Positions 29,314 to 30,136 of a DNA stretch of 30,136 bases are shown here, piece after piece (position 1 is the first letter of the stretch; each line of letters opens with the position of its first letter). The notes under the pieces are model-generated. The model did not search any database. It worked only from the letters and a program-made list of their open reading frames with translations, and had not been told where the DNA came from. Source of the DNA: Actinomycetota bacterium (lineage in GTDB: Bacteria > Actinomycetota > Thermoleophilia > Solirubrobacterales > Thermoleophilaceae); NCBI GenBank assembly GCA_046727635.1, contig JBKPDA010000036.1, forward strand, positions 1-30,136, given 5' to 3'. The translations under genes were made by a program, and so were the position numbers.

Positions 29314-30136
29314 CTATTCCGGGAGCGCGAATGCGAACAGCGCGCTTCCGTGCGACGACCCGAGCATCTTGGGCAGGAATCCTTCAGCCCAACCGCCCCA
29401 GCCGCTCGGCGCCACGACGTACTGCCGTCCGTCGATGCTGTAGCTCGACGGGCTGCTGTGGTGGCCACTGCCGCACTGGAACTGCCACAGCAGGTCTCCG
29501 GAGTTGGCGTCCCACGCGTTGAACTCCCCGGTCGGCTCGCCGCCGAACACGAGGTCGCCGCCCGTGGCCAGCAGCGACGAGCACATGCACAGGTCGTTGG
29601 TCCAGCGCCACCGCTCCTGGCCGGTGCGCGGATCGTAGGCGCTCACGTACCCGCTCTGGTCATCGCCGTCCACAGCGACACCGGCACCCCAGTAGGGGAT
29701 GCTCTCCTTGAACTCCCTGCGCCGCCGCGTGGCCGTCGCGCCGACGTCCTGCACCGGGACGTAGAGGAGCTCCGCCTTCGGGCTGTAGCACGCGTGCGTC
29801 CATTCCTTGGCGCCGGCCGGACCCGGCCAGAAGTGCACCGGGTCGCCCTCCTTGTCGGGGTAGACCTTCGGCGTCACGTTGCCCTTCTCGTCGACCTCGC
29901 CCCAGTCGATGCGGTCCACGAACGGCGCCACCCGGACCGCCGACATGTCCGTGCGGTCGAGGATGTAGAGGAACCCGTTCTTGTCGAAGTGGGCCGCCAG
30001 CTTCTGCCCGTCGAGATCGAACAGGATGTGCTCCATCACGGAGTCGTAGTCCCACAGGTCGTGCGGCGTGTACTGGAAGTGCGCCTTGATTTCGCCGCTG
30101 TCGGCGTCCACGGCGACACCCGAATCGGTGTAGAGG
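29314..30136 (-). CDS. PQQ-dependent dehydrogenase, methanol/ethanol family, C-terminal part; runs off the right edge
   Basis: Frame open to the edge: [48 protein letters not shown], Trp-docking repeats (GQERWRW, GDLLWQF), [13 protein letters not shown]. No CxxCH heme domain at the C-terminus. Confidence 0.93.
   Translation of the reverse strand, partial: [273 protein letters not shown]

Follow-up and report, generated by a model that had tools for sequence, protein, structure and literature searches.

Methanol and alcohol dehydrogenases that depend on pyrroloquinoline quinone (PQQ), and likewise all of the known lanthanide enzymes, have been treated as periplasmic enzymes of Gram-negative bacteria. 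A soil study described the absence of PQQ/XoxF-type dehydrogenases from Gram-positive metagenome-assembled genomes (MAGs) as 'not surprising', as these enzymes are periplasmic (PMC10875860), and the words Gram-positive, Actinobacteria, Actinomycetota, Streptomyces, and Mycobacterium are never used in a 2024 review of rare-earth biology. A lone PQQ-dependent alcohol dehydrogenase (ADH), MSMEG_3726, was noted in the pqq cassette of Mycobacterium smegmatis (Haft, 2011; PMC3023750), and MSMEG_3721–3727 were later mentioned as uncharacterized (Krishnamoorthy et al., 2019; PMC6529628); a route that joins XoxF to the Calvin cycle was described in 2025 for rhizobia (PMC12997859). In this work we analyze a PQQ-dependent ADH gene at the end of a 30,136-nucleotide stretch of DNA (the window) from an actinomycetote of the Thermoleophilaceae (order Solirubrobacterales); the window is the complete contig C36 of a MAG (324 contigs, 3.10 Mb, 78% complete, 69.7% G+C).

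The interpretation that we favor, and to which we give slightly better than even chances, is that the gene encodes a cytoplasmic, lanthanide-dependent methanol/alcohol dehydrogenase that acts with a copper-less cupredoxin subunit and that, in this organism, feeds formaldehyde oxidation linked to tetrahydromethanopterin (H4MPT) and autotrophic carbon assimilation. Our literature searches found no report of a lanthanide-type site, of missing export signals, of a copper-less cupredoxin, or of a link to one-carbon (C1) metabolism or the Calvin cycle for this family.

The WDYDS motif and the active site

A W-D-Y-D-S sequence had been placed on the minus strand at 30040–30054 by a first-pass annotation of the window; the codons (tgg gac tac gac tcc, 30054..30040, minus strand) read as described, and the other strings quoted in that annotation lie in the same frame, including the short C-terminal tail that it had remarked on (...ALFAFALPE, then stop). 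The stop codon is located at 29316..29314, and the frame is open up to the final base of the window; because the window is the entire contig, the gene has been cut by the assembly and not by biology. The encoded fragment has a G+C content at third codon positions (GC3) of 0.92, that is, it is coding-like; it matches TIGR03075 with 265 bits (profile positions 269–530), its 273 residues are 97% identical to residues 290–562 of an intact 562-residue ortholog (locus L094), and its best solved relative is PedH (6zcv/6zcw; E 3e-50). Recovery of the full gene, as the first-pass annotation had proposed, did not succeed in the same genome: no contig end in the assembly overlaps that of the window (k = 20–55), a TIGR03075 search of the assembly did not find the N-terminal half, and tblastn of the assembly found neither the 5′ half nor genes for Mch, for pterin functions, or for the partner protein described below.

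We therefore read the remainder of the protein from its orthologs. A species-level scan (one genome per species) yielded 386 related stretches; the ortholog counts refer to the best 80 loci, which are at least 77% identical to the query P0152, a full-length protein (from genome G031) that is 77% identical to the window fragment. HD[VL]WDYDS[TVI] is present in 80/80 of these loci, and [SR]LCCGNVNRG, GGEFGVRG, and TGNPCPD are kept with WDYDS in all of them; when aligned to PedH, these motifs correspond to the vicinal Cys-Cys, the Glu and Asn metal ligands (the residues that the first-pass annotation had named as those to look for in the full-length gene), the catalytic Asp, and the extra Asp two positions beyond it (+2). 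Conserved in every orthologous locus and aligned to PedH, WDYDS is a genuine motif and not a chance string. MxaF has Ala at +2. The description of the extra Asp as lanthanide-type holds in that it aligns with the Asp of lanthanide-dependent PedH; the PedH motif had been quoted as WDYDG, which was mistaken (it is WDFDG). As summarized in PMC10875860 from Good et al. (2020), Asp at +2 is required for lanthanide use in the enzymes tested.

The assignment to the alcohol dehydrogenase branch, and not to the membrane glucose dehydrogenases, also stands: the full-length ortholog P0153 (97% identical) scores 597.9 bits against TIGR03075 (cutoff 480) and 196 bits against TIGR03074 (membrane glucose/quinate/shikimate dehydrogenases), below its cutoff of 833. 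The orthologs contain about 562 residues (560–567), and have no hydrophobic N-terminus and no cytochrome c domain, and the protein of the window ends about 25 residues past the last blade, so the C-terminal cytochrome of the quinohemoproteins (types II/III) is absent and the earlier description as a type I quinoprotein is upheld. An AlphaFold2 (AF2) model of an ortholog (pLDDT 81, pTM 0.88) is an eight-bladed β-propeller; its best match is PedH (6zcw; TM 0.87, 38% identity), followed by XoxF, ExaA, and MxaF, with TM values of 0.82–0.87 across the four. Judged from these sequences, the ADH is a type I (no heme) PQQ alcohol dehydrogenase with a complete lanthanide-type active site, and it probably depends on a lanthanide.

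The suggestion that the protein might belong to a separate clade is also borne out. When 1.84 billion representatives are searched exhaustively, the identity of the matches to the ADH fragment falls from 50% (P0007) to 38%. A tree of 85 sequences (LG+G4, quick search, SH-aLRT support only) was anchored by a pSymB gene of S. meliloti, which we took to be XoxF on the basis of the literature, and by representatives labeled by their matches to solved structures; it is without named XoxF1–4 references, and its deep nodes are moderately supported (82–90). In this tree, the ADHs, including a copy from Streptomyces, form a clade with support of 100; the sister of the clade is P0007 (support 100), and a nine-member group is next (support 96). 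A different major branch contains the XoxF anchor together with P0032, which represents PedH/ExaA and scores 785 bits to 6zcw; P0093 groups in that branch, outside the clade, and P0046, an outgroup sequence, has no solved relative at E ≤ 1e-90. The orthologs are thus supported as a separate clade that probably lies outside the PedH/ExaA and XoxF branch.

Export signals and the partner protein

All 80 orthologs begin with MAT(ET)EYVDAG, and none has a signal peptide, a lipobox (the features that the first-pass annotation had suggested looking for), or a hydrophobic stretch; the maximum 12-residue hydropathy averages 0.74, vs 1.8–2.8 in signal-bearing relatives. A hydrophobic in-frame extension upstream of the ADH is present in 0/77 loci, and the median distance from the stop codon of the preceding gene, which encodes the partner, to the ADH start is 13 nucleotides. 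A hydrophobic N-terminus resembling a signal is found in most of the remaining full-length relatives on the list of representatives. In the sister P0007, a lipobox (LVAGC) is followed by a stretch that is homologous to the N-terminus of the actinobacterial ADHs; therefore, the actinobacterial proteins probably begin at about the mature end. We had also considered that the N-terminal arm of the ADH is an innovation of the clade, and rejected this in view of the same homologous stretch in P0007.

The first-pass annotation called the electron acceptor unknown, which is not wholly so: a cupredoxin-family partner is encoded beside every ortholog. The partner (145 residues; PF23509; TIGR04339, 258 bits) belongs to the family named after MSMEG_3727 and is directly upstream of the ADH in 63/63 loci with full flanks (78 loci overall); the window itself stops within the ADH, short of the position where the partner would be. 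A signal peptide, lipobox, twin-arginine motif, or membrane helix was found in neither protein in the 77–80 loci inspected. The partner looks like a cupredoxin relative on the combined basis of its language-model look-alikes (the ten best named clusters all belong to the cupredoxin clan, 0.90–0.92), a borderline Cu-oxidase_2 match of the sister partner, a Cys/His/Met loop in that sister partner, and weak structural rows that point to cupredoxin; modeled alone, the partner gives a poor structure (pLDDT 51), with which Foldseek found no match at E ≤ 0.001.

The sister partner, P0277, has a lipobox (ILLASC), a type-1 copper loop (G-C-PVAN-H-AGRG-M), and an upstream His. When the actinobacterial partner is aligned with P0277, His74 is kept, whereas Ser111, Asp116, and Leu121 replace the Cys, His, and Met; two further residues of the actinobacterial protein, His58 and Cys75, are invariant and have newly arisen. 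This difference is consistent across the families: Cys/His/Met is present in 117 of 120 sister-type partners (some named Gemmatimonadota by their source; 105/120 with a lipobox), and Ser/Asp/Leu is present in 35/35 actinobacterial partners. The outgroup P0046 has WDYDS together with a signal peptide, and the gene that follows it encodes a signal-bearing protein (P0278) with cupredoxin-type motifs and a weak, below-cutoff match to Cupredoxin_1. From the sister and outgroup arrangements, the ancestor therefore probably consisted of an exported PQQ-ADH and its blue-copper acceptor, and the Actinomycetota apparently lost the copper site together with the two signals. A closer kinship between the partner and P0278 was considered and rejected (the hhalign comparison is not significant); P0278 is from a different cupredoxin family.

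Structure prediction for the ADH–partner complex gives a score of 0.79 (three runs: 0.79, 0.81, and 0.34; best control, 0.00), a value reached by 58/80 solved complexes and 2/110 mismatched pairs, although these counts are rough here (custom alignments were used). The predicted contacts on the ADH involve residues 3–15 (the N-terminal arm), 127–136 (beside Cys139-Cys140), 178–186, 210–213 (beside Glu207), and 430–435; in the ADH modeled alone, segments 1–17, 84–91, and 432–435 have low confidence. The models support a partner that would bind the active-site face of the ADH, and the complex would be located in the cytoplasm if the missing signals are taken at face value.

Gene neighborhood and distribution

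The features of the window are collected in Table 1. On the minus strand the order is ADH, MntP-like, pqqA, pqqB, pqqC, pqqD, and pqqE, and a complete Calvin-cycle operon (form I RuBisCO) is convergent on this run; we saw no cbbR in the window.

Table 1. Features of the window discussed in the text
Feature	Position	Strand	Basis
PQQ-dependent ADH, methanol/ethanol family; C-terminal 273 codons plus stop	29314..30136	minus	TIGR03075
W-D-Y-D-S; catalytic Asp 30051..30049, extra 'lanthanide' Asp 30045..30043	30040..30054	minus	aligned to PedH WDFDG
MntP-like small polytopic membrane protein, 167 aa, putative metal-ion transporter	28747..29250	minus	synteny/profile
pqqA, 45 aa, ...WIKPVFDFDDLCCEVTMYLYNRR, E-x3-Y core	28575..28712	minus	
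pqqB	27660..28514	minus	Lactamase_B_2; 77% identical to L105 PqqB
pqqC (start approximate)	26923..27672	minus	TENA/THI-4/PQQC, 179 bits; 90% identical to L105
pqqD	26663..26950	minus	PF05402
pqqE (radical SAM/SPASM)	25561..26682	minus	90% identical to L105
Ferritin-like / R2-like ligand-binding-oxidase relative, between MptA and pqqE	24718..25542	plus	weak matches below cutoffs
MptA-type GTP cyclohydrolase, first step of methanopterin biosynthesis	23664..24710	plus	TIGR00294, 295 bits (cutoff 220)
Calvin-cycle operon: glpX fructose-bisphosphatase, class I fructose-bisphosphate aldolase, RuBisCO L and S, CbbX, phosphoribulokinase, transketolase	15499..23648	plus	

The MntP-like protein of the window has no Pfam match of its own; the gene at the corresponding position in locus L107 matches PF02659 (Mntp), and, with a profile built from three copies, an MntP-like gene is found directly after the ADH in 65/78 loci. 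The pqq genes are directly downstream of the ADH in 10 of the 63 loci with full flanks, and Fae, MtdB, and DUF1464 are upstream of it in 50–51 of the 63, with H4MPT-biosynthesis-type genes. Calvin-cycle genes abut the ADH module in 5–6 other loci, in an arrangement different from that of the window. A second contig of the same MAG, C315 (L110, 1–8152), encodes a truncated MtdB, Fae, an FhcB-like open reading frame (ORF; no Pfam match), FhcA, FhcD, and PabC-like and PabB-like proteins; because its MtdB is cut by the contig end, C315 may adjoin the region upstream of the ADH. The particular contribution of the window is the direct junction of pqqABCDE, MptA, and the Calvin cycle, together with the Fae/Mtd/Fhc contig in the same assembly. 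In Streptomyces sp. NBC_01483, a cultured organism, the partner, the ADH, pqqBCDE, and the MntP-like gene occur together.

Several other features of the neighborhood deserve mention. The ferritin-like/R2lox-like gene is 80% identical to L105:803–1597 and is found within 8 kb of the ADH in 19/63 loci; it recurs in these islands without an evident explanation. The pqqA product is longer than usual (45 vs 23–30 residues) and contains two leader-like W-x-K-x-x-F-D motifs (TWTKAEFD and TWIKPVFD) followed by a single CCEVTMY core. The majority arrangement is seen in L107 (12409–15623), where an iron-type ADH (Fe-ADH; 12/63 loci) and a HisKA_3/GerE two-component pair come after the MntP-like gene.

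The Gram-positive-type host proposed from the sequence is supported by the distribution of the orthologs, which occur in Solirubrobacterales/Thermoleophilia MAGs and in a Streptomyces: nearly all of the 80 loci are from soil MAGs assigned to the Solirubrobacterales, Solirubrobacteraceae, or Thermoleophilaceae. Within the order of the window, orthologs are carried by 14 of 301 sampled genomes (11 of 244 of high quality), representing 4 of 81 genera. One MAG (SMAG_U1425) has two ADH copies on separate contigs (L033 and L035), 90% and 88% identical to the G031 ortholog. Near-identical orthologs are also found in MAGs labeled Candidatus Methylomirabilota, Acidimicrobiia, and Streptosporangiaceae (L094, L096, and L085); because these contigs are short (2.4–7 kb), mis-binning is likelier than transfer. 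In a genome of the same family as the window (G013), the ADH copy is decayed (L014, G013:C21:53799–57560): its pieces lie in two frames, the best is 41% identical, and the in-frame stops are two TGA and one TAG.

Members of the ADH family abound in soil metagenomes, with thousands of clusters. The window stretch itself is found in soil metagenomes, and DNA run X1 covers the ADH region and its flanks. Three soil/rhizosphere RNA libraries from three studies contain 402–531 contigs that are at least 92% alike and that lie over the ADH ORF alone, a pattern that strong transcription of members of the clade could produce.

Interpretations and known systems

The favored interpretation can be stated as a sequence of steps. 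The ancestral pair, a PQQ-ADH and a blue-copper protein that were both lipoproteins, as they still are in Gemmatimonadota, would have been exported; the pair of the Actinomycetota starts near the mature N-termini, with the Cys/His/Met of the partner changed to Ser/Asp/Leu. The resulting cytoplasmic complex would use PQQ made by the adjacent pqqABCDE, and the adjacent MntP-like membrane protein may handle the metal, most likely a lanthanide. In this organism, the ADH would most likely oxidize methanol to formaldehyde, which would be taken up by Fae and oxidized via H4MPT (MtdB and Fhc on C315; MptA in the window), and the adjacent Calvin cycle would assimilate the carbon in the form of CO2. We infer lanthanide use, cytoplasmic location, methanol as the substrate, the roles of the partner and the MntP-like protein, and the electron route from these comparisons.

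Several observations weigh against this interpretation, and some of them favor an alternative. The window contains only half of the ADH, so that the N-terminus, Cys-Cys, Glu, Asn, and partner are read from orthologs. If the window copy were truncated or dead, which we regard as very improbable, the presence of only 273 codons and the decayed copy with three in-frame stops in G013 would be explained; but no stop interrupts the frame before the contig runs out (the truncation is the end of the assembly), the GC3 value is typical of coding sequence, the protein is 97% identical to an intact ortholog, and run X1 covers the region. A search of 11 other genomes from the genus of the window did not find the ADH; with this absence and the patchy spread of the gene, mis-binning of the contig or lateral transfer is therefore possible. 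The RNA evidence consists of contigs, and the ADH is more conserved than its flanks, which alone could confine the matches to the ADH. As for the metal, Asp at +2 is necessary for lanthanide use in the tested enzymes but may not suffice for it, and most of the nearest relatives share it (60 of 73 rows outside the clade; the majority of the 73 are uncharacterized); therefore, the motif is ancestral to that part of the family and not specific to this gene. The residue at +3 is Ser in the clade vs Gly in PedH/XoxF. Membrane glucose dehydrogenases carry D-x-D with Ca or Mg. With these facts, and with no known lanthanide uptake or binding gene in the window, the enzyme could use Ca2+ or another non-lanthanide metal; this seems quite unlikely to us, since in the account given in PMC10875860 the methanol/ethanol-family enzymes with this Asp tested so far are all lanthanide-dependent and need the Asp, the nearest solved structure is that of lanthanide-PedH, and the sister system adjoins a TonB-dependent receptor, as Gram-negative lanthanide systems often do.

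The location is open to a similar argument. The absence of an N-terminal signal does not by itself prove that the proteins are cytoplasmic, and a vicinal disulfide would be unusual in the reducing cytoplasm; the same enzyme with the same metal might thus work outside the cytoplasmic membrane, after export without an N-terminal signal or after release and binding to the envelope. All characterized PQQ alcohol/methanol dehydrogenases are extracytoplasmic (PMC8741260, PMC10875860), the invariant Cys-Cys forms a disulfide in the known enzymes and so favors an oxidizing compartment, and the sister systems are exported. We nevertheless consider an extracytoplasmic enzyme unlikely: export features are missing from both proteins throughout the loci inspected, the copper ligands are precisely what the partner has lost, and this would suit a compartment without cupredoxin loading, the Cys counts of the ADH are variable and often odd, and the functions encoded by all of the neighbors (PQQ synthesis, Fae, MtdB, and H4MPT biosynthesis) are cytoplasmic. 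With the copper site lost, no electron route is evident. As for the substrate, the C1 genes are on a separate contig of a 78%-complete MAG, the join of C36 with C315 is only a candidate, and no C1 genes are found within 14 kb of the Streptomyces ADH copy; therefore, methanol need not be the general substrate of the family. The enzyme could instead be a broad-range alcohol/aldehyde dehydrogenase (PedH/ExaF-like), with H4MPT serving in formaldehyde detoxification and the Calvin-cycle operon in an unrelated trace-gas chemolithoautotrophy. The best match in both structure and sequence is the ethanol dehydrogenase PedH, the Streptomyces module has pqq and MntP-like genes but no C1 genes, M. smegmatis, which carries the cassette, failed to grow on methanol in the conditions that were tried (PMC6529628), and Calvin-cycle adjacency is confined to 5–6/63 loci; however, Fae and MtdB are directly upstream in 51/63 loci and there are two different arrangements in which the Calvin-cycle operon adjoins the module, and we regard a broad-range enzyme as rather unlikely. 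This alternative alters the substrate range only; the other conclusions are unaffected.

A more far-reaching form of the favored interpretation, that of a cytoplasmic lanthanide enzyme in autotrophic methylotrophy, seems possible to us although doubtful: this would be the first intracellular PQQ/lanthanide system, in which a periplasmic pair was moved into a monoderm cell, the cupredoxin was rebuilt without copper and might serve as another sort of redox relay or as a lanthanide-loading subunit, and the MntP-like protein would import the rare-earth ion; with H4MPT and the Calvin cycle providing autotrophic methylotrophy in the Solirubrobacterales, abundant soil Thermoleophilia would be unrecognized lanthanide-dependent consumers of methanol. 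If the enzyme is active and intracellular, rare-earth biology would reach the Actinomycetota, lanthanides would need both import into and use in the cytoplasm, a quinoprotein would have a new solution to its electron acceptor, and abundant soil Thermoleophilia would become sinks of plant-derived methanol, with assimilation at the level of CO2 in this organism. Because the cultured Streptomyces carries the ADH, the family is directly testable.

Among the described enzymes, PedH of Pseudomonas putida KT2440 (6ZCV/6ZCW) and the ExaF-type lanthanide-dependent ethanol dehydrogenases have much in common with the clade: all are type I enzymes with an eight-bladed propeller and the same Cys-Cys/Glu/Asn/Asp/Asp, and PedH is the best match of the clade ADH by sequence (361 bits) and by fold (TM 0.87). 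However, the identity is 38%, PedH is located in a different major branch of the tree, and its motif is WDFDG where the clade has WDYDS; PedH is Sec-exported and periplasmic with a cytochrome c acceptor, whereas the clade has no signal and a cupredoxin-family partner. XoxF (6DAM, 4MAE, and 6OC5) has the lanthanide-type Asp and an association with formaldehyde oxidation in common with the clade; the identity to the XoxF structures is 32–34%, the clade is outside the XoxF branch, and no XoxG cytochrome or XoxJ is found near the clade loci. The XoxF–Calvin–Benson–Bassham (CBB) pathway of Bradyrhizobium/Sinorhizobium resembles the window in its association with the Calvin cycle (PMC12997859) but uses glutathione-linked formaldehyde oxidation, which is H4MPT-linked here and in a monoderm host. 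The calcium-dependent methanol dehydrogenase MxaFI has the same fold and PQQ chemistry (TM 0.82–0.85; identity 29–32%); it differs in its small MxaI subunit and cytochrome cL, neither of which is present here.

The nearest relatives are the likewise uncharacterized Gemmatimonadota sister systems (P0007/P0277; L111 and L113), in which the identity is 50–59%, the partner precedes the ADH, the ligands are CCENDD, and the N-terminal arm is homologous. These differ from the clade in that both proteins have a lipobox and the partner keeps Cys/His/Met (117/120). In L113 (6441–11868; one long locus) the neighbors are a divergent TonB-dependent receptor and a DUF2231 membrane protein and not MntP, pqq, or C1 genes; these two could be the outer-membrane metal gate and the membrane electron acceptor of the exported version. 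The M. smegmatis cassette (MSMEG_3721–3727), which is known only from comparative genomics, is like the clade by gene family and clustering: it has a partner of the same TIGR04339/PF23509 family, and its lone PQQ-ADH is clustered with pqq genes in an actinobacterium (PMC3023750). In the loci of the clade the same two features of an MSMEG_3726/3727-type cassette are found, that is, adjacency of the partner (63/63) and clustering with pqq genes (the window, 10/63 loci, and the Streptomyces replicon).

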